A stretch of 60,771 nucleotides of DNA from Patescibacteria group bacterium UBA3531. GTDB lineage: Bacteria; Patescibacteriota; Minisyncoccia; Phycocordibacterales; UBA3531. A program made the position numbers and the translations under genes. The stretch spans positions 1 through 60,771 of the forward strand of contig DFOW01000005.1 of the NCBI GenBank assembly GCA_002376885.1, in the 5' to 3' direction. The notes under the pieces were generated by a model. That model was not told where the DNA came from. It was given only the letters and a program-made list of their open reading frames with translations, and made no database searches. Numbering within the stretch: position 1 is the stretch's first letter; every line of letters starts with the position of its first letter. Shown in pieces: positions 130 through 60,771 of the stretch.

Positions 130-185
130 AATATCTGCTCGCGAGAATGAGCGGTACGAAGTTCGAGCGATTTGCAGATATTAAA

Positions 186-336
186 CCCCACCCTAAATGT
201 GCGTGGGATAGACAAGCGGAGCGCGAGAGGCGAATAGCCTCATCCAAACACAGGCGCAGCACTTCGCCCCAAACAGCGTCTGCCTATTCGACAGACGCAC
301 TGCGCAAAATTTTGCAATGGCACATTTAGGGCGGGG
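186..336. ncRNA. candidate structured RNA / long inverted-repeat element upstream of nusA
   Basis: Closing stem 186-202 with 320-336 (16 pairs, one A-C mismatch). Nested hairpins: GAGGC-GAATA-GCCTC 227-241, GCGTCTG-N9-CAGACGC 276-298, GCGCAG 255-260 with CTGCGC 300-305. Locally GC-rich. The overlapping 60-aa ORF looks spurious. Confidence 0.4.
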
Positions 337-401
337 TACTCAATGTTGTAGTTACTGATTAACTCGGCATTGAACCTCATTAATCATTAAACAACATTGG
401 T

Positions 402-8594: not shown

Positions 8595-9188
8595 CTAAGC
8601 CCCTCCGTTCTTTGGACGGATAATGAGTTGTGAGTAGCGCGTATCAAGACGGTTAGAGTTCCCTTCGTCGGGTCGTGTCCGTCTACTCCAAACTGATTCA
8701 AAATGGCTTTGGGTGATGCACTTGTAATCCTTTCCGTTCTCTCGTGAATCCCTCAGACAGTAGTAATCCTCTTTATCATCAAACCCGCACACCACATAGA
8801 AGTGATCAACATGGTGAATAATGACGGGGACACCGCGAATGATTGACCCTCGCAACGCCCCGAACGCTGCATCACGCATGGAACGATCGCATGAGACTCG
8901 CTCCAACCTCTGATAGAGCTCGGGCACCGCAAGCGTCACCTTGTGATCACTCATGTTCATGGCTGCTTGTGCAAGCTGACCTATAGTGACGTATATGTTA
9001 AACCCAACGCCTTTCCAATCGCCGCTTGTGTCATCTTGCCTAATTTCTCCTCCTCGCAAGAAGGCAGCAACATCCAGCTGATCTAGGCACTGACCCCAAT
9101 ACCGAAGAACAGCTGTGAGCGTAGCGTATCCGCACCACCCGGATGCCCGCTGCTTAACCCACGGAACATCAGGAATAACAAAACGCAT
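8595..9188 (-). CDS. C39-like papain-fold cysteine peptidase domain protein (cassette A, about 50% GC)
   Basis: 197 aa. Q-x5-C motif in KQRASGWCGYATL. His/Asp block in HHVDHFYVVCGFDD. Own promoter candidate TTGACT/TAAACT at 9211-9238 and a GGGGG RBS. Confidence 0.55.
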   Translation of the reverse strand: MRFVIPDVPWVKQRASGWCGYATLTAVLRYWGQCLDQLDVAAFLRGGEIRQDDTSGDWKGVGFNIYVTIGQLAQAAMNMSDHKVTLAVPELYQRLERVSCDRSMRDAAFGALRGSIIRGVPVIIHHVDHFYVVCGFDDKEDYYCLRDSRENGKDYKCITQSHFESVWSRRTRPDEGNSNRLDTRYSQLIIRPKNGGA

Positions 9189-9210
9189 AACACCCCCTTT
9201 TCTAATTGTT

Positions 9211-9238
9211 AGTTTAGCTGTGCAATTGAAGGAGTCAA
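9211..9238 (-). promoter_or_regulatory. promoter candidate for the C39-like gene
   Basis: minus-strand TTGACT (9233-9238), 16-nt spacer, TAAACT (9211-9216). Confidence 0.4.
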
Positions 9239-9254
9239 TATTTTAAAAAAGCGA

Positions 9255-9288
9255 GAGGGCCCGCGCCATGTTTGTGGCGCGGGCCCCT
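9255..9288 (-). terminator. GC-rich intrinsic terminator of the 130-aa cassette gene
   Basis: GGGGCCCGCGCCA-loop-TGGCGCGGGCCC; on the minus strand followed by CTCGCTTTTTT. Confidence 0.7.
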
Positions 9289-9296
9289 TGTTGTGG

Positions 9297-9689
9297 CTAT
9301 GCCTCCTTGAGGCCACAGGCCTCGAGGAGGAGCTTCCGGAGCGGTTCGTCGCTCTTGCTGTCGACAGCGCGAGCCACTGCCATGGCAACCTCGTCGGGGA
9401 TCCCGATCAAGCGCGCCGCTACCGCGTAGTCACCCTCCTTGAAGAAGGTGCCCATCCGTGCCAAAGCGAGTGCCGTGATAGGACACAGAACACCGTCCTC
9501 CTCGCACGGGCGAGCGAACAGACGGATGTGCTCCGGCTTCTTGCTCGTGGGACGAGGGTGAAGTCTGGCCTTCCACCCTTCCACAGTCACGAGCTTCTCG
9601 ATGGCCTCCGCGATCTCGGCAAACCACCGAAGAGCTTCGTCCTCCGTGAGGGTGGATTCGGTTGTTCTTTCTCTTTGCGCGTCTAACAC
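9297..9689 (-). CDS. hypothetical protein, about 60% GC (cassette A)
   Basis: 130 aa; GTG start with GGAGG 5 nt upstream. The protein-like composition contrasts with the plus-strand shadow ORF. Promoter TTGACT/TAGACT at 9713-9740. Confidence 0.65.
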   Translation of the reverse strand: MLDAQRERTTESTLTEDEALRWFAEIAEAIEKLVTVEGWKARLHPRPTSKKPEHIRLFARPCEEDGVLCPITALALARMGTFFKEGDYAVAARLIGIPDEVAMAVARAVDSKSDEPLRKLLLEACGLKEA

Positions 9690-9712
9690 AACGCACCTCC
9701 TTTTCTTGCTCT

Positions 9713-10681: not shown

Positions 10682-10755
10682 TGGTGCGGGTAGGGAGAAT
10701 CGAACTCCCGTCGCCTGATTGGAAGTCAGGCGTTTTACCACTAAACTATACCCGC
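10682..10755 (-). tRNA. tRNA-Trp (anticodon CCA), CCA encoded
   Basis: Cloverleaf by eye: acceptor GCGGGTA/TACCCGC, anticodon stem CCTGA/TCAGG with loop CTTCCAA, T arm GGGAG-TTCGATT-CTCCC. Confidence 0.9.
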
Positions 10756-11424
10756 TTATTTTGTGTACACCTCATTCATCCACGCTTCTATTTTCCGTGA
10801 AAAGTATATACCAAATTTTTTATTTCCTTCGCTCCTTACGGTAAGGTGTACTGTCCCATAAGGTAACTTTCCTCGTTTATATACCTTTTTCCCTGTTCTT
10901 TTGTCAATTTGCGTTTTATTGAACTGGGCCTTTGATAAGCTTGTGACCTTTGCCCAGTAATTAACACACGCTTCTATATCGCTATCCGGATACAAATAAA
11001 GTGTTATGGAAAAATTATTTTTTGAAAGTCCACACACTTCCTGGAACCAACGCAGTGCTAACTTGATAACGTCAGGATTTGAATTAACAATACGCACAAT
11101 CCCATGACTTTTTGTCCCCTCACCAATATAGAGCCCCAATCCTAACATAAAAATATCTCTTTTGTTAAGGCTCCCTATTTCCTTTTTTGCTTCACTTTGT
11201 GCTTTTCGTATGGAAGCACGCTTGATCTCATTTTTAACAGTGGCTGACCTAGCACGAGCTTTTCCAATCTTTACAACTGTCTCTTTATTTGGTGTATAGG
11301 GGATTTTTCTAAGCCAGTGACTAAGCGTACTTTTAGAAACACCTACTTCGTCAGCGATAAAACTGTACGAATACCCATTTTGGCGTAACTTTATTGCTCT
11401 TTCTTTTGCTGCTTGCTTACTCAC
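10756..11424 (-). CDS. HTH plus LAGLIDADG-like homing-endonuclease-like protein
   Basis: 222 aa. N-terminal HTH (YSFIADEVGVSKSTLSHWL). LGLGLYIGEGTKS resembles a single LAGLIDADG motif. The stop codon directly abuts the 5' end of tRNA-Trp. Confidence 0.5.
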   Translation of the reverse strand: MSKQAAKERAIKLRQNGYSYSFIADEVGVSKSTLSHWLRKIPYTPNKETVVKIGKARARSATVKNEIKRASIRKAQSEAKKEIGSLNKRDIFMLGLGLYIGEGTKSHGIVRIVNSNPDVIKLALRWFQEVCGLSKNNFSITLYLYPDSDIEACVNYWAKVTSLSKAQFNKTQIDKRTGKKVYKRGKLPYGTVHLTVRSEGNKKFGIYFSRKIEAWMNEVYTK

Positions 11425-11483
11425 ATCTACAGTATATCACATAATATACATATGTTCGTATTTTTATCATCGTCCAGATAACT

Positions 11484-11511
11484 AAAAACCCCGCAAAGTT
11501 GCGGGGTTTTT
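11484..11511. terminator. bidirectional intrinsic terminator
   Basis: AAAAACCCCGC-AAAGTT-GCGGGGTTTTT. Confidence 0.7.
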
Positions 11512-11527
11512 AGTTAGGAGTGTGATA

Positions 11528-11644
11528 CTACTCAGTAGCAGCTTCACCTTCTCCACCTTCAGCTGGTGCAGCTTCTCCTTCTGGAGTAGCTTCACCTTCA
11601 GTTGCTTCTGCACCTTCTGGTGCCATATCTTCTAGTACGATCAT
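11528..11644 (-). CDS. candidate 38-aa acidic micro-ORF (MIVLEDMAPEGAEATEGEATPEGEAAPAEGGEGEAATE)
   Basis: ATG-to-TAG frame with a periodic GAA/GGT-rich repeat. No clear RBS. Similar in style to the micro-ORF at 57905-57991. Confidence 0.25.
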   Translation of the reverse strand: MIVLEDMAPEGAEATEGEATPEGEAAPAEGGEGEAATE

Positions 11645-11714
11645 TGTAAATTCAATGTAAGTCGATTGATAAGTTACGACCGAGTAAACAAAAAGCCCTT
11701 TCAGGCTTAGAGGT

Positions 11715-11742
11715 ATTGTAGCCTATCAGGACTTTTTGTCAA
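11715..11742 (-). promoter_or_regulatory. strong sigma70-like promoter (TTGACA-N16-TACAAT) followed at once by a hairpin plus T-run
   Basis: Minus-strand TTGACA 11737-11742 and TACAAT 11715-11720. The hairpin AAGCC-N6-GGCTT (about 11689-11704) is followed by TTTGTTT. Confidence 0.5.
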
Positions 11743-11804
11743 ACCCGTCAAATAATTTTGTTTACAAAATTAGCTTTGCTATTTGACAGGTTCAATCAGT
11801 TTCT

Positions 11805-13124
11805 TTAACTATTTTGAATAGCGTTCAGTCCGTTTCCGTTTCTGTTTCGTTCTCGTTCTTCACGCAATCCCTTTAATTGTTCGTGCAAGGTTTGCACATA
11901 TACAAAGATAGCAACCAAAAGGACAATCAAAATGGTAAGGATAATCCACCCAAACACCGTGCTTGGGAAGAATCCTCCATTTGAGAGAATGAGTGCTCCT
12001 TGTCCGTTAGCGCGAGCATCGTCAACATCTGCCAAAGTGCCTGCGGTTGTGGTTGCGTTTTCATCTCCATTGTCTCCAAAACCAAAGAGTCGTGCCCAGA
12101 ACCCTCGAGTGTCCTCTTGTGCAGTTGTATCGTTAGAAGATTGAGAGGTGTCGTTTGTGTTTCCGCCTGTATCTGAACCAGAACCTTGATTATTTGAAGC
12201 TGTTCGTGACCCACTTGTTTGAGAAGGCGCGCTTCCTGTATTGTTTGTTCCTTGTGATGACTGATTAGTGTTTGACGTATTAGTGTTAAGAGCAACTGTT
12301 GGAACGCTAAGCGGTTGGTTGAACCCAGTCACTAGTCCCCCATCACTTGTAAATGCCAAGACAGAACCAACGGCTCGTCCACCTGGACCAAGAACTTCGG
12401 CTCGGTAGTAATAAATTGTCCCTGGTGTTAGACCAGTCAGTGTTTCTTGAAAACTAAGACCAAGGAACCCTGCTCCCAAGCCCTTAACTTGGGTTTGTTG
12501 CAAAATGTCAGGGGTGGTTCCCCATCTAAAGTATGCGCTAATGTTTGCGCTCGTATTGGTTTCTGCTTGTCCACGAATAATAACGGTATTGTCGTTAACA
12601 ATCTGCGGAACAAGGGTTACTGCTGTTGGCGCTGGGTATGAAGAGGTAGTGTCGATAATGGTACCAACGTTACTGATAAAGCTTCCGAGCGATTCAGAAA
12701 ACCCATCAATAATCCTAAATCGAATAGTGTCTCCGTATACATATTCTCCGTCAGATTCTTGCGCTACTGCTCGATAGTAATAAAAATCTTCTATATCAAG
12801 ATTAGACAAAAAATGAGAAAGGAAAATTTCATCGTCCCCTATCAAAATAGAGCTGGTTCGTTTACCAAGCGATGACGTCTCTCCCCATTCAAACCATGCG
12901 TTTCCAATGTTTGTTTCATCAGAAAGGTCTGCAATCATTTTAAGTTCTGCGCTCCCTTTATCTTCACCTGATCGATAAAATGATGGTGTAAACGTTACTA
13001 CGTCTCCAAATGGATCGTCGTCATGATCGGCAAGTGCCACTCCTGGCAAAAGGAGAGCAAGCACAAAAAGCCCCACTAAGAGGGTTTCTGCTACTTTTTT
13101 TGCTGTCTGCGCAAAAATATTCAT
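11805..13124 (-). CDS. surface protein with repeated Fn3-like modules, S/T/N/G-rich linker and C-terminal TM anchor
   Basis: Signal peptide from MNIFAQTAKKVAETLLVGLFVLALLLPGVALA (start moved to 13124). Repeated W..T...YYYRA modules. C-terminal TM WIILTILIVLLVAIFVYV. Confidence 0.7.
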   Translation of the reverse strand: MNIFAQTAKKVAETLLVGLFVLALLLPGVALADHDDDPFGDVVTFTPSFYRSGEDKGSAELKMIADLSDETNIGNAWFEWGETSSLGKRTSSILIGDDEIFLSHFLSNLDIEDFYYYRAVAQESDGEYVYGDTIRFRIIDGFSESLGSFISNVGTIIDTTSSYPAPTAVTLVPQIVNDNTVIIRGQAETNTSANISAYFRWGTTPDILQQTQVKGLGAGFLGLSFQETLTGLTPGTIYYYRAEVLGPGGRAVGSVLAFTSDGGLVTGFNQPLSVPTVALNTNTSNTNQSSQGTNNTGSAPSQTSGSRTASNNQGSGSDTGGNTNDTSQSSNDTTAQEDTRGFWARLFGFGDNGDENATTTAGTLADVDDARANGQGALILSNGGFFPSTVFGWIILTILIVLLVAIFVYVQTLHEQLKGLREERERNRNGNGLNAIQNS

Positions 13125-13195
13125 GGTTGGCATTATACAGTACTGACACTTGTTTGTCAATGCTTTCTCTTGATGCCTTTTTTAGTCGGGACGCC

Positions 13196-13268
13196 GGGAT
13201 TCGAACCCGGAATCGCTCGGTCCCAAACCGAGAATGTTAGCCGTTACACCACGTCCCGTCATCATGCT
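13196..13268 (-). tRNA. tRNA-Pro (anticodon TGG)
   Basis: acceptor CGGGACG/CGTCCCG; anticodon stem CTCGG/CCGAG with loop TTTGGGA; T arm CCGGG-TTCGAAT-CCCGG. Confidence 0.9.
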
Positions 13269-13304
13269 TATTAGCCACGCTATAGTAGCACAAAACTCAA
13301 TATT

Positions 13305-13697
13305 TTAAAGCAAAATGTCCTCTAAATGTTCCATCTCATCAACTTCTCCCTCTTTTAAATACACTGCGATTGCATCAACTTGGTAATCTTCGTCCTCTTT
13401 TCCCTCTTCTCTTAGGTAGGTTTGGATAATTCTTCGGAGGCGATCTTTTTTCTGCTTAGTAATATTAAAAAGTGGGTTGTAATCAAAATCCCCCTCTTTC
13501 TTGACAGAGATTGACTTCACCTCAACAAAATGGATCACTCCTTTTTTTGCAGCAATGATGTCAAGCTCTCCCCAGGGTTTTAAATAATTTCTTCCAAGAA
13601 CGGTAAACCCATTCTTCTCCAAGTGTTGTACCGCAATATCTTCCCCCTTGTCTCCTGTTTCTCTATTCTTACTCTTCATATCTTTCACGTGAAACAC
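13305..13697 (-). CDS. yraN: YraN family (UPF0102) endonuclease-like protein
   Basis: 130 aa; GDKGEDIAVQHLEKNGFTVLGRNY...GELDIIA...IHFVEVK pattern. Confidence 0.8.
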   Translation of the reverse strand: MFHVKDMKSKNRETGDKGEDIAVQHLEKNGFTVLGRNYLKPWGELDIIAAKKGVIHFVEVKSISVKKEGDFDYNPLFNITKQKKDRLRRIIQTYLREEGKEDEDYQVDAIAVYLKEGEVDEMEHLEDILL

Positions 13698-13923
13698 TTA
13701 AATCGTTTCTTTGGTAACATTACTGCTGTCTTTTTGGCTTCAAAGACCCTATCTTTAAAATGTCCTTATTTTAAGCCACTTTTCATATGAAACGGACATA
13801 ACGATAGTGTTTGTCTTTGACCTTTATACACATATCCCCAGTTTTATCCCCATTTCTTATTGGACTTTTCCACATAAGAATCCACATTCTGGGGACAAGT
13901 AATGCTCTTAAGGACATTTACTA

Positions 13924-14064
13924 GTGCGGGTAGGGACCTGTCTGCCGACAGGCAGGGAATCGGTCACAGATATTTTGCTCCGCCTGCCTGACGTCAGGCA
14001 GGCAAAATTCCGCGACCCCGCCTCGGTGCTCAGACCAATGGCACACCTCCGGCTTTCGATTCCC
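13924..14064 (-). other. GC-rich structured insert beginning with a duplicated, interrupted tRNA-Gly 3' end (integration-scar-like)
   Basis: GTGCGGGTAGGGA at 13924-13936 repeats 14115-14127. It is followed by a 20-nt hairpin CCTGTCTG-CCGA-CAGGCAGG and then GAATCG (the continuation of the tRNA T-loop). A perfect palindrome GCCTGCCTGAC/GTCAGGCAGGC lies at about 13982-14003. GGGAATCG (13955-13962) pairs with CGATTCCC (14057-14064). Confidence 0.45.
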
Positions 14065-14115
14065 AATACACCTTAAAATTATAGCCCAACACACGGTTGA
14101 GTCATAATTTTCATG

Positions 14116-14186
14116 TGCGGGTAGGGAGAATCGAACTCCCGACTCGTCCTTGGCAAGGACGTGTTATACCACTTAACCATACCCGC
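14116..14186 (-). tRNA. tRNA-Gly (anticodon GCC)
   Basis: Acceptor GCGGGTA/TACCCGC; anticodon stem CGTCC/GGACG with loop TTGCCAA. The T arm is identical to that of tRNA-Trp. Confidence 0.9.
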
Positions 14187-14199
14187 TGTGTGCTATATC

Positions 14200-14298
14200 G
14201 GGACTCGGCCACTCTCGCAGAATAGCTATTCTGCTCCATCGGCCCCCACTCGAGCCTTCGTGCTGCGCACGGCTTTGCAGGCTCTCGGTTCGAGTCCC
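14200..14298. ncRNA. candidate about 100-nt GC-rich structured RNA between tRNA-Gly and tRNA-Arg
   Basis: Closing stem GGGACTCG (14200-14207) with CGAGTCCC (14291-14298). Hairpins: GCAGAATA-GC-TATTCTGC 14217-14234, and GAGCCT...AGGCTC 14253-14284 enclosing CGTGC-TGC-GCACG. Contains a T-loop-like GGTTCGAGTCC but no cloverleaf. Confidence 0.35.
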
Positions 14299-14357
14299 CC
14301 TAAAAGCATTAAAATAATATTTCAAGGACACTTCTTGCCCTCGAAATTTATTTTAGG

Positions 14358-14429
14358 TGCTCCCGGAGGGACTCGAACCCCCAACGACGGTTCCGAAGAC
14401 CGTTGTGATATCCATTTCACCACGGGAGC
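14358..14429 (-). tRNA. tRNA-Arg (anticodon TCG)
   Basis: acceptor GCTCCCG/CGGGAGC; anticodon stem ACGGT/ACCGT with loop CTTCGGA; T arm GGGGG-TTCGAGT-CCCTC. Confidence 0.88.
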
Positions 14430-17519: not shown

Positions 17520-17891
17520 TCACGGCTGGCCGCCTTGCGGGGCACGGGATTCCTACGGGATTCCTCTTGCTACCGCCCGCCCGCCGTAGTCAAAAAACGG
17601 CAAACCTTGGCCCATCACGGGTCAAACGATCTGGGGGATCGAGTGACGAACTCGTCGCATCCGCCGTAGGTCTAGGCGCCCAGGGCGCCCAGGTACAAAC
17701 CGCAGCTAAGCCCGAATGAGGGGCATACGCTCGCCTCGTAGACCGAGGCAACCAGGACCCACAAAGAGATGGAATGTCGCGCCAACGGCCGCGGCCCCAC
17801 TGGGAAAAGCCTCTCACGAATACAGGTCCTTGGGCCGTAAGGTCCTCCGGGGCCGGAATCGACACCACATCGATTCCGGCCCTTCATCTTT
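17520..17891 (+). ncRNA. about 370-nt GC-rich non-coding RNA of unknown class, with its own promoter and terminator
   Basis: No protein-like ORF (the ORFs present are W/R/P-rich). Many local hairpins: CGAGT-GACGA-ACTCG, GCCTCG-TAGAC-CGAGGC, GGCGCC-CAG-GGCGCC. Tandem ACGGGATTCCT x2. Terminator GGCCGGAATCGA-N7-TCGATTCCGGCC (17851-17881) followed by CTTCATCTTTT. Confidence 0.55.
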
Positions 17892-21135: not shown

Positions 21136-21168
21136 AAAAGCCCGGGAGTGTTACCTTCCGGGCTTTTT
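21136..21168. terminator. bidirectional terminator shared by pnp and the convergent GC-rich cassette B
   Basis: AAAAAGCCCGGGA-N8-TCCGGGCTTTTT. Confidence 0.75.
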
Positions 21169-21180
21169 GGCTACCGCTGG

Positions 21181-21459
21181 CTACTGCCAGCTTTCGTCGC
21201 CTCTGAAATCCTCGAAGATGTCCTGTGTTGCATCTTTGTCGTCGCTCCACAGGATTACATTGAATCCCGAGAGATCATCCTTTTGCCGAATCTGGACAGA
21301 GGCAATTTCTCCCTCATACTCCGTGTCACCGACATGAAGGGCAAGCTCTGCACCAGCCGCCGGAACGAAGGGGAGGATGAAGTCCTTTGAGAAGATCTCT
21401 TCATTCTCTTCACGACCAAGAACCACCACAACCGTGACACAAATTTCAGGAACACTCAT
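21181..21459 (-). CDS. hypothetical acidic 92-aa protein, GC-rich (cassette B)
   Basis: ATG with AGGAGG 5 nt upstream; protein-like composition; the overlapping plus-strand 201-aa ORF is S/T-rich low-complexity. Confidence 0.6.
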   Translation of the reverse strand: MSVPEICVTVVVVLGREENEEIFSKDFILPFVPAAGAELALHVGDTEYEGEIASVQIRQKDDLSGFNVILWSDDKDATQDIFEDFRGDESWQ

Positions 21460-21649
21460 CGTGTCCTCCTTAAAAGAACATTCTGTTTCGTCTTGCCGAT
21501 TTGACTTGGAAGACTCGTCAGTCAGCCTTGGGCTGAGACAGAGGAAGTTTTTGAATAGAACTTCCGAAACTATGGAACCTGTGGTCTCGCCCGTGTTCCC
21601 CGATGGTTATTACCTCCACCGGTTGGCACGGATCCCCACTCACGCAAGG

Positions 21650-21931
21650 TTACCATTCGTCGGCGCGGTATTCTCTGCACAAGCGCTCACCGTACTCCAG
21701 TTTGGTACCATCTCCTGGGTACACAACAATACGGTTAAGGTGGGATGCCCACGATGCTCGCTCACCATACACTTCGCGCACAGCACAGCAAATCACATCC
21801 CACGCAACGCTCTTCAGCCAAACAAGTCCCTCTCCGTCACCCATTTTGTAGACAGGGTTGTCTCGCAGTTCGCGCAACTCTTCATAGAGTTGCGCGTATG
21901 CCCGCCAAGCCTCTATGACACGGGTATCCAT
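21650..21931 (-). CDS. hypothetical 93-aa protein, GC-rich (cassette B)
   Basis: ATG at 21931 with AAGGAG 7 nt upstream (the track starts one codon earlier, at a GTG). Confidence 0.6.
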   Translation of the reverse strand: MDTRVIEAWRAYAQLYEELRELRDNPVYKMGDGEGLVWLKSVAWDVICCAVREVYGERASWASHLNRIVVYPGDGTKLEYGERLCREYRADEW

Positions 21932-22123
21932 CACGATTCTCCTTGCAAAGAACTAGTGGGCATTATTGCCCGAGAGGGATAAGCACTTACTCATCACCTC
22001 ACTATTTCTACGCCAATTATATTCTAATCTGTCAAGTTTGTGCGTTTATATAGATACGTTTTATTATAAATACCTATATTTTTAGCCATATCTTAGATAC
22101 ATATTTAATTTTGTGCGTTTGGA

Positions 22124-25918: not shown

Positions 25919-25947
25919 TTGACATTACAAAAAATAAAGTGTATTAT
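25919..25947 (+). promoter_or_regulatory. promoter (TTGACA-N17-TATTAT) of GC-rich cassette C
   Basis: TTGACA 25919-25924; TATTAT 25942-25947. Confidence 0.5.
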
Positions 25948-25992
25948 ATTTTTTAGAAATTTCGCCCTTTTTAAATAAGAGGAGAATCTCAA

Positions 25993-26346
25993 ATGGCGCT
26001 TACGGTAGCATCGCCCAAGCTGAGTCTGGCAGAGGCCACCCTCGGAAGGTGGGTGGGCTTGCCCATCAACATGGGTGGAGAGCTCGGATACGTCGCATGC
26101 GCAGGTCGCGTGACGGCAGTCAACGACGACAAGAGCATCGTCGTGACGCTTCTCGGTTCGACCTGGCCCCGAACGGAACTCCGTGGGACGATCATCTCGA
26201 TCACCCAGGAGCGCTTCGGCAGGGGTGAGGCCACGATCTACGCGATGACCAACGACGAAGAAGCGGAGCACACGGAAGAAGCCCAGAAGTGGATCGAAGA
26301 ACAGCGTGGCTTCCTCGAGCGCCTCATGGAGGCGCTCGAGAGCTAG
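25993..26346 (+). CDS. hypothetical 117-aa protein, GC-rich (cassette C)
   Basis: ATG preceded by AAGAGGAG; the composition switches abruptly at the start codon. Confidence 0.65.
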   Translation: MALTVASPKLSLAEATLGRWVGLPINMGGELGYVACAGRVTAVNDDKSIVVTLLGSTWPRTELRGTIISITQERFGRGEATIYAMTNDEEAEHTEEAQKWIEEQRGFLERLMEALES

Positions 26347-26371
26347 CTGGTTCCGAGAAGGAGTCACGTCC

Positions 26372-26560
26372 ATGAATCAAGACCAGTTCGGAAAGATGAT
26401 CGTCTGCTGGCTCGGTCCAGCGTTCGTGATTCTCGCGTCCCCGTTCATCCTCGCTGGCCTCATCCTCGCCGTGCAGAACCTTCCCCTGGGTGGGTTCACG
26501 ACCGACGAGACGAAGCACGAGATCACGGTCACGGGAGAGTTCACCTTCCCTCCGTACTAG
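26372..26560 (+). CDS. hypothetical 62-aa membrane protein, GC-rich (cassette C)
   Basis: ATG at 26372 with AAGGAG about 10 nt upstream; TM WLGPAFVILASPFILAGLILAV. Confidence 0.55.
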   Translation: MNQDQFGKMIVCWLGPAFVILASPFILAGLILAVQNLPLGGFTTDETKHEITVTGEFTFPPY

Positions 26561-26582
26561 AGCGTCGGAGGAGATGACACAG

Positions 26583-26622
26583 AAGCCCCTTAGTAGGAAA
26601 CGAACAGGGGCTTTGTCTTTTT
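26583..26622 (+). terminator. terminator of cassette C
   Basis: AAGCCCCT-N15-AGGGGCTT then TGTCTTTTT. Confidence 0.65.
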
Positions 26623-26670
26623 AAATCTCTCAAGAAACCACATTTGGGAGCATCTACTTATAAATCTCTC

Positions 26671-26796
26671 TTGGAGCAGGGTTTGAGAACCTGCCGGAGA
26701 AAATTTTGCTTGGCTCAGCCGTAGGCTGAAAAATTTTCGAGGATAAGCGAGCGCTCCGCAGGAGAGCGCGAAGCGGGTTCTCAAACCCTGCTCCAA
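26671..26796 (+). ncRNA. structured RNA motif, copy 1 (P1 plus three-way junction with conserved CTGCCGNAG / TGCTTGG / YCGAGGATAAG)
   Basis: P1 is 26671-26691 with 26776-26796 (21 bp). CTGCCGGAG 26691-26699; TGCTTGG 26707-26713. Hairpin TCAGCC-GTA-GGCTGA 26715-26729. TCGAGGATAAG 26737-26747. Hairpin GCGCTC-N7-GAGCGC 26751-26769. CTTGG pairs with TCGAG through G-U pairs only on the plus strand. Confidence 0.55.
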
Positions 26797-26848
26797 AAAA
26801 AATAAACCCTATTGAATTTCGCAAGCCACCACGATACACTAAAGGCAT

Positions 26849-27247: not shown

Positions 27248-27265
27248 GGAATATAAAAGGGTAGG

Positions 27266-27826
27266 GTGGTAGCCAGACTGGCATGGCGCCAGAGGAGACA
27301 GGAATTGGAAACTCATTACCATTTGAGAAGCGGGAGTCCCCAGGATGGAATCCTCCTTGGTCCGGGCGCGATTCTTCAGGCGGGCGACAAGCTGGCGCAT
27401 CCCGACGGGTTCTGGGAACCGTGCATGACCCCAGGAGCTCTTCTTTGGGATAGGCCGAAAGAGGTTTGCTGGGTTCGCCCCGTCGACCTCCCTCGGCACC
27501 TGAAGGACCTCTTGGTCTTCATTGCCGAGCGGGGGCGCCTCCTGTACCGACGAGACGAGACGCTCTTCGAAGAAGGAACGCAAGGGAAGATCGACACACG
27601 CCCGTGCTGGAAGATGCTCCGCGGAGCACACGAGGTAGACCGAGCCGATGCAACGAGTGGTGGCATTCCCGGTATCGGGGCACTTGCCTTCGTCGATCCG
27701 CTCCTTGCCTACGGACTTCTCACTCCCGCAAGCGGGAGTGAAGTGCTCTTCTCTCCCAACGAGTACGGGACACGTGTTGCCATCAACCATCTCGCCGAAA
27801 GGTGGGCAGATGAGGTTGCGACATAG
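27266..27826 (+). CDS. hypothetical protein, GC-rich (cassette D); start codon uncertain
   Basis: The plus frame ends at TAG 27824-27826, followed by a plus-oriented terminator. A TTG near 27305 with GGAG upstream is an alternative start. The 233-aa minus-strand ORF is judged a shadow. Confidence 0.5.
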   Translation: MVARLAWRQRRQELETHYHLRSGSPQDGILLGPGAILQAGDKLAHPDGFWEPCMTPGALLWDRPKEVCWVRPVDLPRHLKDLLVFIAERGRLLYRRDETLFEEGTQGKIDTRPCWKMLRGAHEVDRADATSGGIPGIGALAFVDPLLAYGLLTPASGSEVLFSPNEYGTRVAINHLAERWADEVAT

Positions 27827-27837
27827 TCGCAAGACCA

Positions 27838-27876
27838 GGGGCCGTCCACAGCTGTGGACGGCCCCTTCTTCTTTTG
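27838..27876 (+). terminator. GC-rich terminator of cassette D
   Basis: GGGGCCGTCCAC-AGCT-GTGGACGGCCCC then TTCTTCTTTTG; a T-run follows only on the plus strand. Confidence 0.75.
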
Positions 27877-29442: not shown

Positions 29443-29471
29443 TTGACAAAAATATAAAAATAGTGTATATT
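29443..29471 (+). promoter_or_regulatory. consensus promoter (TTGACA-N17-TATATT) of GC-rich cassette E
   Basis: TTGACA 29443-29448; TATATT 29466-29471; starts 4 nt after the comM stop. Confidence 0.55.
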
Positions 29472-29573
29472 TACGAATGGATAATCGGGTTGAGAATGTC
29501 TCTTCCTGGTTAATTAACCCCACGACTGCAAACAGGCTGTATGAGCCTAGACAGTCACTAGAAGGGTTGTTCC

Positions 29574-30866
29574 ATGACAAGCGAACTGACGACACTGAAT
29601 CTTCCTGCCAACCGACCGAGTCCCCAGGAGCTCTTCGACTACCCCCAGTACACGATCCCCGGGATCACCACTTGGGAGCAGGTCGTGCTCCTCGGGAGCA
29701 AGAACATCGGGGCGATGATCAGCCGGTGTCGCTCCCGCGAGAAGGAGCTCACCAGCAGGATCCAGCGGCTCGTCGAGAAGCAGAAGCTTCTCGAAGGCAA
29801 GTCCGGTGACGACATCAAGGAGATGGCCAAGGGTTTCGAGAATCCCACCATCACCGAGACGGGTGTCCCGGACGGTAGCTGGAACGACGACCTGGAGCCG
29901 ACCGACGGGGCGAGTAAGGCCCGCGAACGCGGGGCGACCACCTTCAACATCTGCGGGTGGTGCACGCACGCCGGTGGAGGCACCTGTCGCTACGGCTACT
30001 ACATCAAGACCAGCTGTGGCCTGATGCACGGCGACTCGCCCGAGACGGCCTTCAACACACCTTGTCTCCTCCAGGAGATGGGGAACGACCAGATCACGGC
30101 GATCGTCGAACGCACCAAGAACCTGATCATGGACACCAAGGAACTCCGCGAGAAGGTGCGGACCGGAATCCGGATCCTGCAGCAGCTCAAGGAGAACGAG
30201 GGGTCCACGGAGAAGCCCTACCTGATGTCCCTCCGTCCGCATGACCACTTCAACGTCGGCGACGACGTGATGGTGCGCATCGGCGGCCACGACAACGTGA
30301 TCGTGGAGGGCGAGTGGGCTCCGGCGATGGTGGTGTTCGGCTACCGTCATCACGATGGCTGCGTGAGCACCCAGACGCTGTTCCCGATCCACAACGGTGA
30401 AAATCTCGAGGGTCGGGGATGGGGCTTCGGGATGAGTCGTCCGGAATGCCTCCTCAGGAGCGAGTTCAGCTACCTGCGGGACGCCTTCGAGAACGACCTC
30501 TGGTTCCTGCGGCTTTGGCTGCAGGCGCTCGACGAGAAGCTGACGGGCTTCAACCCCGTAAGCTTCCGGAAGGCACTCCAGGACGGTGCGATCGCCGACC
30601 CGCCCGAGGACTGGGATCCCCCCGTCGACGAGATCGCTGTTCGAAGCGTCGAGGATGCGCAGTGCGTACTCCAGATGCTCAACGTCGACCTCTTCGACAC
30701 GGAGGAGAAGGTTCGTGGCTGGGTCAACATGCAGCTGCAGTTCGTTCACCCCGACAAGCACGCCAACGGCAACAAGGGCGCCCAGTCCTATGCCGAGCGT
30801 CAGACGAAGGCGGTGTATGCGGCGCGTGATCTCCTGATCCAGCGCCTGCGGGATCGTCAGAGCTAG
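29574..30866 (+). CDS. 430-aa protein with C-terminal J domain (HPD motif) and central Cys-rich region, GC-rich (cassette E)
   Basis: J-domain-like C-terminus: DAQCVLQMLNVDL..EEKVRGWVNMQLQFVHPDKH...AYAARDLL, with HPD at 30747-30755. Cys cluster CGWCTHAGGGTCRYGYYIKTSCG. The 442-aa antisense ORF is a shadow. Confidence 0.75.
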   Translation: MTSELTTLNLPANRPSPQELFDYPQYTIPGITTWEQVVLLGSKNIGAMISRCRSREKELTSRIQRLVEKQKLLEGKSGDDIKEMAKGFENPTITETGVPDGSWNDDLEPTDGASKARERGATTFNICGWCTHAGGGTCRYGYYIKTSCGLMHGDSPETAFNTPCLLQEMGNDQITAIVERTKNLIMDTKELREKVRTGIRILQQLKENEGSTEKPYLMSLRPHDHFNVGDDVMVRIGGHDNVIVEGEWAPAMVVFGYRHHDGCVSTQTLFPIHNGENLEGRGWGFGMSRPECLLRSEFSYLRDAFENDLWFLRLWLQALDEKLTGFNPVSFRKALQDGAIADPPEDWDPPVDEIAVRSVEDAQCVLQMLNVDLFDTEEKVRGWVNMQLQFVHPDKHANGNKGAQSYAERQTKAVYAARDLLIQRLRDRQS

Positions 30867-30884
30867 GAGGCGCAAGCCTCAATC

Positions 30885-30930
30885 GGCCCCGGCCACTAAC
30901 TTCGGTTAGTGCGTCCGGGGCCATTTTGTT
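30885..30930 (+). terminator. GC-rich terminator of cassette E
   Basis: GGCCCCGG...CCGGGGCC enclosing CACTAAC-TTCG-GTTAGTG, then ATTTTGTT. Confidence 0.7.
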
Positions 30931-30972
30931 CCTATTCTGTAACTTTTTTTAATTAATCTCGTTATATACAAC

Positions 30973-32406: not shown

Positions 32407-32436
32407 TTGACAAAAGAGTGATTATTGTGCTATAGT
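32407..32436 (+). promoter_or_regulatory. promoter (TTGACA-N18-TATAGT) of the GC-rich pilin cassette
   Basis: TTGACA 32407-32412; TATAGT 32431-32436; a perfect DnaA-box 9-mer TGTGGATAA lies at 32388-32396 just upstream. Confidence 0.5.
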
Positions 32437-32495
32437 TCCTCCAGTTTCTGGGAGAAATCCCACCACAGAACCTTCACACCAAGGAGATCGATACC

Positions 32496-32897
32496 ATGCG
32501 GAACCACCGCAACGGCTTCACCCTGATCGAGCTCATGATCGTCGTCGCCATCATCGGCATCTTGGCGGCCATCGCCATCCCGAACTTCCTGCATTTCCAG
32601 ATCAAGCAGCAGATGAACGTGGAGTTCCAGGAGGTCGCCACGGCCCTCGAGCTGTCGGACGCCGGGGACCCCGTCCCCTCGCTGTGCACCGGCACCTGGC
32701 GCAACGAGAAGGGCAACCGCTTCGACTGCTACCTCAAGAGCTTCGAGGATGGCGGTCACGTGGTGACCATCCGCTTCTACTACCAGGACGACCCGGACCC
32801 CAGCCATGCGCTGACCTGGGCGATCAACGAAAACGGCGAGGTGGATCTCCCGACCTACGAGTCCCTGCGTCACCCACACAGGCAGACGAGCTCCTAG
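32496..32897 (+). CDS. type IV pilin / pseudopilin with canonical class III signal peptide, GC-rich (cassette F)
   Basis: 133 aa; MRNHRNG|FTLIELMIVVAIIGILAAIAIPNF (G-1, F+1, E+5); two Cys in the C-terminal half; AAGGAG RBS. Confidence 0.85.
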   Translation: MRNHRNGFTLIELMIVVAIIGILAAIAIPNFLHFQIKQQMNVEFQEVATALELSDAGDPVPSLCTGTWRNEKGNRFDCYLKSFEDGGHVVTIRFYYQDDPDPSHALTWAINENGEVDLPTYESLRHPHRQTSS

Positions 32898-32920
32898 GCA
32901 GCCGTCCTTCGGGACGTCGA

Positions 32921-32960
32921 GAGCCTTGACAGCACATCACTGTCGGGGCTCTTTCTTTTT
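32921..32960 (+). terminator. terminator of the pilin gene
   Basis: GAGCCTTGACAG-N7-CTGTCGGGGCTC (two G-U pairs) then TTTCTTTTT. Confidence 0.7.
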
Positions 32961-33004
32961 ATTTATTTTGAACGTAAAGTGATAGAAGAAACACGGAGGG
33001 TCTC

Positions 33005-33169
33005 ATGAAATTGTTACGCACACTAGGTGCTGTCGCAGCTCTCTTGTTCGTCGGGTTCCTCGCTTGGAGGGCATTCACCGGAGAAGGTGAGCCCGGATCG
33101 CTCCTTCTGATCGGAGCAGGAATCGCAGGGCTCTCGCTCTTGCGAACCAGGCACCCGGTGAGCTACTAG
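33005..33169 (+). CDS. 54-aa protein: signal/TM helix plus PEP-CTERM-like tail, GC-rich (cassette F)
   Basis: MKLLRTLGAVAALLFVGFLAWRAFTGEGEPGSLLLIGAGIAGLSLLRTRHPVSY; GGAGGG RBS. The tail (EP-GSLLLIGAGIAGLSLL-RTR) resembles a PEP-CTERM sorting signal. Not in the ORF track because it is under 60 aa. Confidence 0.45.
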   Translation: MKLLRTLGAVAALLFVGFLAWRAFTGEGEPGSLLLIGAGIAGLSLLRTRHPVSY

Positions 33170-33176
33170 GGACTCT

Positions 33177-33207
33177 GCCCCGGCGCATGCGCCGGGGCTT
33201 CCTTTTT
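33177..33207 (+). terminator. GC-rich terminator
   Basis: GCCCCGGCGC-AT-GCGCCGGGGC then TTCCTTTTT. Confidence 0.75.
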
Positions 33208-33269
33208 ACCAAAATTTTTTTCTCCCAAAAATAATACTTGGGATCTGGAAACTTTTTAAAATTTGTCCC

Positions 33270-33392
33270 GAGACAGGGCTTGAAGTACTGCCGCAGGCGA
33301 AACATGCTTGGTTCTGCGTGAACAGAATGTGAGCCGAGGATAAGGAAACCCTATCGCTGGAATAGGGTTTCCGGTGCTTCAAGCCCCGTCTC
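33270..33392 (+). ncRNA. structured RNA motif, copy 2 (same architecture as 26671-26796)
   Basis: P1 is 33270-33285 with 33377-33392 (one A-C mismatch). CTGCCGCAG 33288-33296; TGCTTGG 33305-33311. Hairpin TTCTG-N6-CAGAA 33312-33327. CCGAGGATAAG 33334-33344. Hairpin GAAACCCTA-N9-TAGGGTTTC 33345-33371. Confidence 0.55.
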
Positions 33393-33417: not shown

Positions 33418-35355
33418 ATGAATTACCTCGAAGGGTTAAACAAAGGACAAAAAGAGGCCGTACTCCACAAAGACGGTCCGCTTTTAATTTTTGCAGGGGC
33501 GGGTGCCGGCAAAACAAAAACCGTTACTCACAGAATCCTTCATCTTATTCAAGAAGGAGTTGCCCCAACAAGTATTTTGGCTGTTACGTTTACCAACAAG
33601 GCGGCGGGCGAGATGCGCGACCGTGTCATGTCACTTATTGAAAAAGATAATGTTTTAAGTTTCCCCAGCTCTAACCCCTGGGTAGTGCGTCAGCATTTAC
33701 CCGAGATCTCAACATTCCATTCTCTGGGAGTAAAAATTCTAAAAGAGCATGCAAAAGATATTGGTAAAACAAAAAACTTTACCATTCTAGATAAAGACGA
33801 CTCATTGCGAGCAATTAAACGTATCTTAAAACGACTTGACCTAGACCCTAAACAATATGAACCTCGAAAAATCTTAAATAGAATCTCTCGCACAAAAGGA
33901 GATGGAGTTGGATTTAAAGAGTTTGCAGAAGGTACTCATGATTTTTTTGGAAACATTGTGGTAACCGTATGGGAAAAGTATGAAAAAGAACTTAGGGAAA
34001 CAAATGCTCTTGATTTTGACGACCTTTTAGTAAAAACACTTCACTTACTTGAACAAAACAAAGAAATTTTAGAAAAGTATCAAGAACGATGGAGGTACAT
34101 TCATGTGGATGAGTACCAAGACACTAACCGTGTTCAATATGAATTCACTAAACTCTTAGCAAACAAATACAAAAATATTTGTGTGGTGGGGGACAATGAT
34201 CAATCTATTTACAGTTGGCGGGGAGCAGACTACTCAAACATTCTTAATTTTGAAAAGGATTACCCAAAGGCGAAAATTGTTCTTTTAGAAGAAAATTACC
34301 GCTCAACTAAAACCATTATTAGTGCCGCAAATGAGGTCATTAAAAAGAATCGTGAACGAATTGAAAAGAATTTATTTACCAGCCGTGACGATGGAGAAAG
34401 AATTTTGGTGTATGCAGCACCCGACGAGAAGAAAGAGGCGGAATTTATCGTGGGGAAGACCAAAGAATTAATTGATAAGGGGACCAATCCAAAAGATATT
34501 GCCGTTCTGTACCGAGCAAACTTTCAGTCACGAATTTTAGAAGAAAAGTTTTTGCATTCTGGTATCCCGTACCAAGTCCTTGGTGTGCGTTTTTTTGAAC
34601 GAAAAGAAATTAAAAACATGCTCGCATATTTGCGTGCCGCTATTAATCCCGACGACCTTCACAGTATTGAAAGAATCATTAATGTACCAGCACGTGGTAT
34701 TGGGAAGGTTACGCTTGCAAAAGTGTTTGGCGGACAAAGAGAGTCTCTCTCACCAAGAATGAAAGAAAAGGTAGACACTTTTTTTGAAATCTTAAAATCA
34801 ATTAACAATAAAAGTCATGTACTTGCACCATCGGAGCTTCTAAAATATGTTGCACGAGTTTCAGGAATTGAGGGCGCCCTTAAAAAAGGGAGTGAAGACG
34901 ATTTAGAACGACTCGAAAACATTAACGAGCTGGTAACCCTTGCAACCAAATACGACACACTCCCTGCTGAAGAAGGACTTGATCTCTTTTTAGAAGATGC
35001 GTCTCTTATGACAAGTGACCAAGATCAAATAGAAGACGCTAAAGGAGTAAAGTTAATGACCGTACACGCTGCAAAAGGTCTTGAGTTTGATTATGTTTTT
35101 GTAACAGGACTTGAAGAAGATCTTTTCCCTCATACAAAGTTGGGGAGTGAAGAAAAAGATGAAGAAGAAGAGCGCAGACTTTTTTATGTTGCTGTCACTC
35201 GCGCAAAAGAAAAACTCTTTTTAACGTATGGACATAAACGAATGCTCTATGGGCAAGAAACAATGAATCTTCCGTCGCAATTTATTTACGATATAGATGA
35301 AAGCCTGATCGAAAACCAAGAGGGTGCCTACGAGACCGTGATTAGTATAGAGTAG
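33418..35355 (+). CDS. pcrA: UvrD/PcrA-type superfamily 1 DNA helicase (compact)
   Basis: 645 aa; Walker A AGAGAGKTKT; DEYQDTN; VGDNDQSIYSWRGA; TVHAAKGLEFD. Confidence 0.9.
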   Translation: MNYLEGLNKGQKEAVLHKDGPLLIFAGAGAGKTKTVTHRILHLIQEGVAPTSILAVTFTNKAAGEMRDRVMSLIEKDNVLSFPSSNPWVVRQHLPEISTFHSLGVKILKEHAKDIGKTKNFTILDKDDSLRAIKRILKRLDLDPKQYEPRKILNRISRTKGDGVGFKEFAEGTHDFFGNIVVTVWEKYEKELRETNALDFDDLLVKTLHLLEQNKEILEKYQERWRYIHVDEYQDTNRVQYEFTKLLANKYKNICVVGDNDQSIYSWRGADYSNILNFEKDYPKAKIVLLEENYRSTKTIISAANEVIKKNRERIEKNLFTSRDDGERILVYAAPDEKKEAEFIVGKTKELIDKGTNPKDIAVLYRANFQSRILEEKFLHSGIPYQVLGVRFFERKEIKNMLAYLRAAINPDDLHSIERIINVPARGIGKVTLAKVFGGQRESLSPRMKEKVDTFFEILKSINNKSHVLAPSELLKYVARVSGIEGALKKGSEDDLERLENINELVTLATKYDTLPAEEGLDLFLEDASLMTSDQDQIEDAKGVKLMTVHAAKGLEFDYVFVTGLEEDLFPHTKLGSEEKDEEEERRLFYVAVTRAKEKLFLTYGHKRMLYGQETMNLPSQFIYDIDESLIENQEGAYETVISIE

Positions 35356-60231: not shown

Positions 60232-60259
60232 TTGACAAATATTTCATCTATGCTACTAT
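60232..60259 (+). promoter_or_regulatory. promoter (TTGACA-N16-TACTAT) driving the hairpin leader and the terminal GC-rich gene
   Basis: TTGACA 60232-60237; TACTAT 60254-60259. Confidence 0.45.
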
Positions 60260-60293
60260 GTTTTGCAGCATATATAGTAGTTGATCTTTCTTA

Positions 60294-60458
60294 TTGAGGT
60301 CATACATCTCTAAGCAATCGGGCCGCAAGGCAAAGGGTTTTATAAAGAGGACGCCCTGGTGCTTCGTTTACGAAGACTCTCTGGAGCTATCCTTCGAGTA
60401 ATGCCTTTTAACTTTAATTTATACGATTAACTGATTGCTTAGAGGTGTGTGGCCTCAA
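60294..60458 (+). ncRNA. 165-nt element closed by a 26-bp stem; possible divergent third member of the CTGCCG/GATAAG motif family
   Basis: 60294-60319 pairs with 60433-60458 at all 26 positions. Three of these are U-G pairs that would be C-A mismatches on the minus strand. Internal GCCGCAAGGCAAAG (60322-35), TGCTTCG (60360-66) and TCGAGTAATG (60394-60403) echo the motif blocks. Confidence 0.45.
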
Positions 60459-60561
60459 AAATGGGTCACACCGTTCTTTGAGATAATTTGTATCTAAACG
60501 GGCCCGTGCATATCTTGCGAGGTGCAAGAGAAGACGACGTCCACACAGGAAAGGACTTGCC

Positions 60562-60771
60562 ATGAAAAAGGCAACCCTTGATCAGGGAATGAAAATCCTC
60601 GAGCTTTTCAGAGAGGTGCCGTGTGAGCAGGTACAGAGCCTGCTCTCGTCGGGTCTCCTCGCCGACCTTCGTGATGGCAACATCGCGAGAGTCGACAGGA
60701 ACGCGTTTCGGGAGATGGTGGGGCTTGCGCCCTTCGATCTTCCTCTCCTCGCACCGCTCGAGCAGATCCCC
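60562..60771 (+). CDS. hypothetical protein, GC-rich, 3'-truncated by the window edge (cassette G)
   Basis: ATG at 60562 after AGGAAAGG; MKKATLDQGMKILELFREVPCEQVQSLLSSGLLADLRDG...; the composition jumps to GC-rich. Confidence 0.55.
   Translation, partial: MKKATLDQGMKILELFREVPCEQVQSLLSSGLLADLRDGNIARVDRNAFREMVGLAPFDLPLLAPLEQIP

Follow-up and report, generated by a model that had tools for sequence, protein, structure and literature searches.

What is the compact structured element that lies directly upstream of pcrA in Patescibacteria group bacterium UBA3531, and does its position behind a GC-rich gene cassette reveal what it does? The stretch of DNA analyzed here (60,771 nucleotides of contig DFOW01000005.1, hereafter the window) carries this element at positions 33270-33392 of the + strand, 25 nt 5' of the pcrA start codon. 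An earlier note, made from the sequence alone, had connected it to a first copy upstream of a dksA-like gene, to a possible third copy, and, through a common position behind GC-rich cassettes, to a hammerhead. We lean, by a modest degree, towards assigning 33270-33392, as a full-size representative, to a family of palindromic, structured repeats, selfish or domesticated, that is specific to the Paceibacteria/Parcubacteria within the Candidate Phyla Radiation (CPR).

The element folds into a three-way junction on the + strand. In the pcrA-proximal copy (copy 2), the closing helix P1 pairs 33270-33290 with 33372-33392 through 18 Watson-Crick pairs, two G.U pairs, and one A.C. Enclosed within it are a CC clamp (CC 33291-33292 with GG 33338-33339), a GCA bulge (33293-33295), helix P2a (~33296-33305 with 33328-33335), a GCUUGG loop (33306-33311), the P2b hairpin (33312-33327), the junction GA / AUAA (33336-33343), and the P3 hairpin (33344-33372), in which C-GCUG-G occupies 33355-33360 and an A is bulged at 33361. 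The predicted minimum free energy (MFE) of this strand, -68.2 kcal/mol (z = -8.0), beats all 200 shuffles; the - strand of the same region reaches -63.3 kcal/mol (z = -7.8). BLAST of copy 2 against the window returned no second copy. Copy 1 (26671-26796, + strand), 52 nt 5' of a dksA/traR zinc-finger gene, was instead located via the inverted-repeat listing of the window (26664-26803), having been missed by BLAST because structure is common to both copies more than sequence; its P1 pairs 26671-26695 with 26774-26796. Both copies present the same order of blocks: a long closing helix, then CUGCCGSAG, a helix with a GCUUGG interruption and a hairpin cap, CGAGGAUAAG, a second hairpin with the loop CGYNGGA, and finally CGG leading back into the closing helix.

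Homologues of this full-size form were fetched by exact sequence pattern scans. The first scans yielded a Candidatus Nomurabacteria genome (L024) and ten metagenome loci, and a later one added L413, L483, and a pair in L442, the rest being mostly noise among the matches listed; most matches to these exact patterns are chance or coding, e.g. the metG KMSKS region in Clostridia. The resulting set comprises 14 sequences, i.e. the two window copies and 12 more in nine related contigs. Across this set, P1 is 19-25 bp long, and P2 opens with a CC/GG clamp that is invariant, followed by a 3+2 internal loop (G-S-A facing G-A). Beyond the clamp lie a covarying helix of ~9 bp, the GCUUGG internal loop, in which the sole variation is U to C in two copies, and a hairpin that varies, while P3 is a covarying hairpin with the cap C-GYNG-G and a bulged A. 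RNAalifold on a MAFFT alignment of 11 sequences recovered 38 pairs, 29 of them with compensatory changes. When all 14 sequences were aligned to a covariance model of the full-size form (R1), 94.4% of cells paired, compared to 64% for shuffled and 34-50% for slid partners, double (compensatory) changes were found in 31 of the 38 pairs, and the covariation score (0.836 vs. 0.241) was equalled by none of 500 shuffles. Fitting this alignment to R1 favours the structure, and the unfitted MAFFT/RNAalifold result agrees. Run over the whole window with filters off, R1 identified exactly two copies, at 116.2 bits (copy 1) and 99.9 bits (copy 2), with nothing else above 13.8 bits, which confirms the pair of copies in the earlier note. 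R1 scored these copies at 100-116 bits on the + strand vs. 13 bits on the - strand, and the fold includes 34 G.U cells; in 10 of the 14 copies, P1 ends on its inner side with a U.G. The + strand is thus the folding strand. Taken together, the window motif is a real, conserved, strand-specific, and covarying three-way junction.

The genomic context of full-size copies is heterogeneous. Their neighbours include the dksA-like gene, pcrA, lysS/mraZ, an ftsK-like gene, recJ/RNase H, a gyrA-like gene, a sigma factor/dnaG, relA/parB, superoxide dismutase (SOD), and a DedA-like gene, and the gene on the 3' side is in many cases convergent. Copy 1 is 94% identical to the (+) copy of L109 and copy 2 is 80% identical to that of L070, in both cases with no flanking genes in common; copy 1 also recurs at 100% identity in metagenome contig L050, and L024, L095, and L065 have only the element and ~100 nt 5' of it in common. 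Head-to-head pairs of dissimilar full-size copies, ~35-50 nt apart, were observed in two unrelated contigs (L109 4421-4710 and L442 2812-3096), and L070 contains a degenerate extra copy. Within the window, a solo arm at 26629-26651 (+), between the terminator of the cassette next to copy 1 and copy 1 itself, matches the P1 arm and flank of the (-) copy of L109 at 21 of 23 bases (E = 0.01) and is tentatively considered a likely remnant of an element. Because related copies are non-syntenic, their neighbours heterogeneous, and pairs, a degenerate copy, and a solo arm occur, an ordinary gene-specific leader can be ruled out. The suggestion that the motif is a gene-specific cis-regulator of the dksA-like gene and pcrA is likewise at odds with the flanking genes of the 14 full copies.

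A smaller form of the element is far more widespread. This mini form (85-100 nt) keeps the CGCAG-helix-CGAG module, the P3 hairpin, and the long closing helix, and was found through its exact 21-mer core TCGCAGGCCGNCGGGCCGAGA at 120 or more loci among the matches listed, nearly all of them in Patescibacteria (Kaiser-, Nomura-, Harrison-, Doudnabacteria, and others). The same core had no match in 2.9 million viral contigs, and full-size pattern scans of viral contigs returned no true match. Mini copies also form a three-way junction, with a P1 of median 29 bp (range 9-56) whose outer arms are unique to each copy, a P2 of the form (C/U)UC[GCA]GGCC-GNCG-GGCC[GA]GA(G/A), and a P3 that is a 7-bp hairpin with the loop AGCA; compensatory changes were found in 20 of 24 pairs. 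Their succession of pyrimidine strand, GCA bulge, helix, GA bulge, and purine strand matches the CC[GSA]...[GA]GG of the full-size form. R1 scores mini and intermediate forms at 22-50 bits, while a model of the mini form (R2) ranks the window copies first and fourth with correct boundaries, at weak scores of 13.3 and 11.6 bits. An intermediate form, CCGCAG...CGAGGAUAAAG with a plain P2 hairpin, lies just 3' of pcrA in L171. These reciprocal model matches and the identical order of conserved blocks point towards a single family, of which the window motif would, with moderate confidence, be an enlarged member.

Mini copies are distributed in the manner of repeats, including inside genes. Among 109 copies, 33 lie within long open reading frames (ORFs) that remain open through the element (21 sense, 12 antisense), the remainder being found in intergenic DNA in any orientation; overall, orientation relative to neighbour genes is near random. 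In-ORF copies occupy three sites in pcrA (12 copies), and also lie in tsaD (7), uvrB (4), ksgA, and other genes; inserted pcrA genes encode ~33 extra residues compared to uninserted relatives. A single reading frame is used per orientation: 19 of the 21 sense copies encode 'GVSQADGPRGSA...DSDP' and all 12 antisense copies encode 'GSLS...ALPLGPSACETP'. We detected no split-gene signature around mini copies, and elements located between open frames without being spanned by them are ordinary intergenic copies. Given that no split genes occur among flanking open frames, in-ORF copies are most simply read as translated, not excised; intron-like excision was considered and rejected based on the lack of split genes, the use of both orientations, and the strict choice of frame. 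Mismatches in mini arms are more often G.T than A.C (95 vs. 38), which indicates that one strand folds. For each copy, the outer P1 helix is unique yet almost perfect. Individual in-frame mini-elements can be seen in L166 4001-6226, L268, L316, and L340 (pcrA), L317 (tsaD), and L251 (uvrB), with up to three in one pcrA (741 aa vs. 645 aa), and the outer closing helix overlaps codons of residues conserved in uninserted relatives (e.g. NGK...PF in L268).

The gene downstream of copy 2 is itself a recurrent neighbour of mini copies. pcrA (UvrD/PcrA-type helicase, 33418-35355, +) starts directly 3' of copy 2, and an R1 scan of 55 pcrA loci of relatives (Paceibacteria and Nomurabacteria, best 52-59% protein identity) identified no element 5' of the gene. 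A sense mini copy lies ~17 nt 5' of the pcrA ATG in L323, from another lineage, mini copies are found just 3' of pcrA in L160, L162, and L171, and GC-rich variants of ~90 nt occur within the pcrA reading frame of L166 and L169. Since mini copies flank pcrA elsewhere, the location of copy 2 near this gene does not depend on the cassette. Separately, a region within the pcrA coding sequence (35142-35238, +) resembles Rfam n00280, described as 'C. difficile sRNA included into helicase gene', at 39.6 bits with a gathering score of 65.2; this match most likely reflects conserved helicase codons.

These observations are consistent with the element being a non-autonomous selfish or secondarily domesticated repeat, similar to Rickettsia palindromic elements (RPEs) and REP-type repeats. 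Such an element would be spread or kept via a folded single strand, either RNA or one DNA strand, and a putative trans-acting factor would recognize the conserved junction in single-stranded form. Copy 2 is most probably transcribed as part of the pcrA 5' leader, because the only room for a promoter is the 64-nt A+T-rich spacer 5' of it, and its long hairpin may insulate pcrA against the foreign cassette upstream or stabilize a transcript end. In this lineage, cassettes would accumulate in intergenic regions holding the element.

Several observations weigh against this repeat interpretation. Within 2.5 kb of 109 copies, we found no transposase, recombinase, or recurrent gene, only host housekeeping genes. 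Neither conserved termini nor target-site duplications were seen, either by inspection of the listed flanks or in a systematic repeat scan of four cassette/element regions, and the outer P1 is unique to each copy, unlike in miniature inverted-repeat transposable elements (MITEs). Exact-core matches are modest, at a few per ~1-Mb genome among the matches listed, and several pcrA and tsaD insertions occupy an identical site in many species, as expected of old and stable elements that are not actively moving. In-ORF insertion, documented for mini copies, was found for none of the 14 full-size copies, and the two forms are linked as homologues by a common architecture and by reciprocal scores that are weak (11-13 bits in one direction). 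Finally, the conservation of junction nucleotides across classes fits a functional RNA as well as it does a recognition site, and is in part an ascertainment effect of fetching homologues by exact patterns.

Comparison with known systems helps to place the family. RPEs, attributed to work by Ogata and colleagues in 2000, are reportedly lineage-restricted palindromes of ~100-150 bp found in-frame in housekeeping genes in either orientation. Mini relatives are similarly lineage-restricted palindromic repeats of small genomes, both intergenic and in-frame without stops in housekeeping genes, in either orientation, with a fold kept by compensatory changes (31/38 pairs in the full-size form, 20/24 in the mini form), no associated transposase known, and dispersed copies (two in the window, 12 more full-size, and at least 120 mini loci among the matches listed). 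However, the two groups have no sequence relationship and belong to different host phyla, the element here has a conserved three-way junction with an outer closing helix unique to each copy, and in-frame insertion is seen in mini relatives but in 0/14 full-size copies. REP/REPIN sequences are read by a trans-acting enzyme as single-strand-specific hairpins and often stand after genes as terminators or mRNA stabilizers. With the REP/REPIN-RAYT system the element has in common short, structured, multi-copy palindromes and head-to-head doublets (L109, L442), yet it lacks the GTAG/CGTC tag, has a branched junction, occurs inside ORFs, is present at far lower copy numbers, and has no RAYT-like gene within 2.5 kb of 109 copies. 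MITE-like repeats (Correia/NEMIS, ERIC, BOX, RUP) are co-transcribed with their neighbours and may supply terminators, promoters, or RNase III sites. They resemble the element as intergenic sequences of 100-160 bp with long inverted termini, but MITE termini are conserved and associated with target duplications, whereas here it is the core that is conserved and the termini that vary, with outer P1 arms that are dissimilar even for copies of a single genome, and duplications were not observed. attC sites offer a parallel in their folded strand, conserved structure with variable sequence, and location 3' of small ORF cassettes (copies 1, 2, and L070). In contrast to attC, the base of P1 is variable, there are no R''/R' (RYYYAAC/GTTRRRY) boxes or arrays, nor any intI among the 10 cassette and neighbour ORFs scanned, and the cassettes are dispersed with their own promoters and terminators, with the L109 element located 5' of its cassette and most elements having no cassette at all. 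Lastly, hammerhead, twister, and RAGATH RNAs also combine a compact junction, an invariant core, covarying helices, and several copies per genome, but the element has no covariance-model match to them and no positional parallel with the hammerhead, and was not found in viral contigs.

Both window copies lie next to GC-rich, moron-like cassettes. Cassette F, the neighbour of copy 2 (32407-33206, +), includes a promoter (32407-32436, TTGACA-18-TATAGT), a pilin-like ORF (32496-32897), an internal terminator (32919-32953), a 54-aa membrane ORF (33005-33169), and a final intrinsic terminator (33177-33206) made of a 9-bp all-GC stem and a U-run, which forms a strong hairpin 64 nt 5' of copy 2. The pilin-like ORF is closest to Myxococcaceae-type pilins (45-47% identity), and its homologues gave no context information. 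Cassette C, next to copy 1 (25919-26622, +), has a promoter at 25919-25947 (TTGACA-17-TATTAT), two ORFs (25993-26346 and 26306-26560), and a terminator at ~26584-26622. GC-rich islands of this type extend over ~8800-9700, 17600-17870, 25919-26622, 27250-27870, 29443-30935, 32407-33206, and 60500 to the end of the window, with a GC content of 0.55-0.66 vs. ~0.41 for the background, and feature perfect TTGACA -35 boxes, consensus sigma-70 promoters, strong ribosome-binding sites, orphan ORFs, and strong terminators. Pfam matches of island ORFs are limited to a weak PEP-CTERM-like tail and the N-terminal methylation motif of pilins. Three short A+T-rich repeats that could be due to chance bracket these features: a 13-nt inverted repeat (32445-32457 / 33219-33231) around cassette F, a 13-nt direct repeat TTWTAAATCTCTC (26619-26631 / 26658-26670) around the solo arm, and a 23-nt repeat, 78% identical (25929-25951 / 26797-26819), around cassette C and copy 1. 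The cassettes are separate promoter-ORF-terminator units and not part of the element.

The spacings from which the earlier note had derived a post-cassette slot hold for both copies, with copy 2 starting ~64 nt past the terminator at 33177-33206 and copy 1 ~50 nt past the terminator ending near 26622, each across an A+T-rich spacer. The proposed link between element and cassettes stands in part: cassettes repeatedly adjoin the element, at window copies 1 and 2, L070, and L109, i.e. in this window's lineage only, but the element is not cassette-bound. In L109, it lies 5' of the cassette promoter instead of after the terminator, such that cassettes occur on either side of the element; 4-5 GC-rich islands of the window have no element beside them, and neither Nomurabacteria-type full copies nor >100 mini relatives have a cassette beside them. 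The element behaves like a repeat or mobile DNA, which comes close to the related idea that the motif is a footprint of cassette movement. As for the slot itself, 7 of 12 full-size copies have a strong hairpin (<= -14 kcal/mol) 20-65 nt away on their 5' side and none of the 12 has one on the 3' side, while hairpins near mini copies favour neither side (n = 70, p = 0.93). A position behind a hairpin is therefore a genuine regularity among full-size copies. Nomurabacteria-type loci display one or two conserved hairpins, CCCCUCYCC...GGAGAGGGG, located 20-110 nt 5' of the full-size element without any cassette (L111 1085-1215, L095 4332-4435, and L065 5385-5460), the whole forming a conserved unit of ~250 nt.

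The other two members of the originally proposed set were not confirmed. The candidate type III hammerhead (21480-21544, - strand) has the core CUGACGAG / CGAAAC / GUC and stems I-III, but its Rfam score is sub-threshold (35.4 bits vs. a gathering score of 48.5, E = 4.5e-4). It sits between the 94-aa and 92-aa GC-rich ORFs of a single bicistronic minus-strand unit (21140-22040; ORFs 21931->21650 and 21459->21181, terminator 21170-21140), the hairpin 5' of it has no U-run, and a ribosome-binding site follows it, making its position intra-operon and not post-terminator. With the hammerhead in a different kind of position and no known ribozyme family matching the element, catalysis by analogy is not supported. 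Similarly, the region proposed as a third copy (60294-60458) does not align to the motif and is not a member of the family; R1 and R2 searches with filters off yielded no match at 60291-60461 (E <= 5-10). Instead, 60291-60461 (+) is a separate 171-nt long-stem structure (z = -8.5) with a 29-bp closing helix and a four-way junction, which resembles the motif in gross architecture only and lies 3' of a TTGACA-17-TACTAT promoter (~60233-60261), in the ~300-nt leader of a GC-rich ORF starting at 60563.

No known RNA family accounts for the element. A gathering-threshold scan of the whole window with Rfam 15 returned four tRNAs only, and at E <= 10 both copies and one mini copy had only spurious microRNA-type matches, due to the long stem, and no ribozyme family among their matches. 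Three structural or functional readings were also tried and discarded: a k-turn in the CC-GSA-GA / GA-GG module would need a register that clashes with the P2a pairs, which covary, a decoy of the CsrA type (with GGA in J2/3 and the P3 loop) is inconsistent with mini forms lacking GGA loops, and a general terminator role does not fit with U-runs after P1 occurring only in L024 and a near-random orientation to neighbours.

Among rival explanations, the one we rank highest, while still considering it doubtful, is an independent small-RNA gene family with its own promoter in the A+T-rich spacer, protein-bound or processed (e.g. by RNase III) and acting in trans. The strand-specific fold, strong covariation, and invariant junction nucleotides are all expected of an RNA gene, many copies run divergent or convergent to the adjacent genes and would thus require their own transcription, and strong hairpins occur 5' of 7/12 full-size copies and 3' of none. 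The P1 of copies 1 and 2 is preceded, at 7-8 nt, by -10-like boxes (TATAAA, TAAAAT), and that of L024 is followed by a U-run. Most copies, however, have no such U-run, no convincing -35 box or conserved promoter at a fixed distance was found, mini relatives lie inside ORFs in both orientations, unlike an RNA gene, and the occurrence of degenerate copies, solo arms, and two dissimilar paralogues at a distance of 6.5 kb is more typical of repeats. Next in order, and improbable in our estimation, is a recombination or landing site for GC-rich cassettes, attC-like in function but dispersed around the chromosome. The presence of unrelated cassettes beside homologous copies in non-syntenic places (copies 1, 2, L070, and L109), a single-strand-specific fold such as attC sites use, and a solo arm at a cassette/element junction would all fit this model. 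It is difficult to reconcile with cassettes having no fixed side or orientation relative to the element, with the 4-5 islands lacking an element, and with the Nomurabacteria-type and >100 mini copies lacking a cassette; moreover, no integrase gene, R'/R'' core sites, or arrays were found (no integrase Pfam match among 10 GC-rich cassette and neighbour ORFs scanned), and the short cassette-bracketing repeats are weak and inconsistent. A more specific version, in which the element is the recognition structure of a single-strand-specific recombination or copying system that both spreads the element, into essential genes as well, and captures autonomous GC-rich foreign cassettes beside it, is a long shot, but if true it would represent dispersed, integron-like gene acquisition in organisms thought to be poor in mobile elements.

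The last two rivals are less likely still. A new self-cleaving ribozyme or RNA-processing element, which we regard as very improbable, would by analogy fit the compact junction with ~25 invariant nucleotides, variable helices, and several copies per genome in varied contexts, a profile typical of hammerhead and twister, and a candidate hammerhead is present in the same window. That hammerhead scores below threshold and differs in its kind of position, though, no Rfam ribozyme family matches the element at E <= 10, the element was not found in viral contigs, where small ribozymes are common, and cleavage of sense in-frame copies would destroy the mRNA of essential genes. Least likely of all is a cis-regulatory leader or riboswitch for pcrA and the dksA-like gene. 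In the window, each copy shares its orientation with a gene that starts 25-52 nt 3' of it, a mini copy occupies the same place 5' of pcrA in L323, and conserved unpaired nucleotides could form a binding pocket. Yet genes downstream of the other 12 full copies are unrelated and at least six are convergent (lysS, recJ, gyrA-like, sigma factor, cupin, and others), 0/55 pcrA loci of relatives have the element upstream, and a P1 of 19-25 bp is atypical for aptamers. Nor did we find a terminator/antiterminator alternative, sequestration of the ribosome-binding site, a U-run, or a competing helix, with P1 ending 25 or 52 nt before the ATG.

Other structured regions of the window appear distinct from this family. 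A 153-nt long-stem, multi-branch structure at 185-337 (+) (MFE -68 kcal/mol, z = -6.5) has a non-syntenic counterpart of 88% identity at L074 6170-6365 (-), the closing helix of which differs by compensatory changes, and has no Rfam, R1, or R2 match. Four tRNA genes (10685-14429, -) are separated by G+C-rich palindromes, e.g. at 13937-14002.

Under the preferred reading of the element as a structured palindromic repeat, the family is of a known kind, that of in-gene, RNA-foldable palindromic repeats, and what is new is its unusually conserved branched core and wide distribution across the CPR. It is apparently undescribed, as a full-text literature search of incomplete coverage, which included the core sequence, found no description. 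CPR bacteria (Patescibacteria) represent a large share of bacterial diversity, with tiny genomes and a poorly understood RNA biology and genome dynamics. Given the strong covariation, the lack of an Rfam match, a core common to several candidate phyla, and in-frame copies in pcrA, tsaD, and uvrB, the family represents either a new system of selfish DNA in streamlined genomes or a functional structure, of RNA or DNA, that is itself new. Recognizing it would improve annotation, with the mini form inflating predicted proteins by ~33 residues per copy, and it provides a handle on both the uptake of foreign cassettes and the tolerance of insertions in essential proteins.

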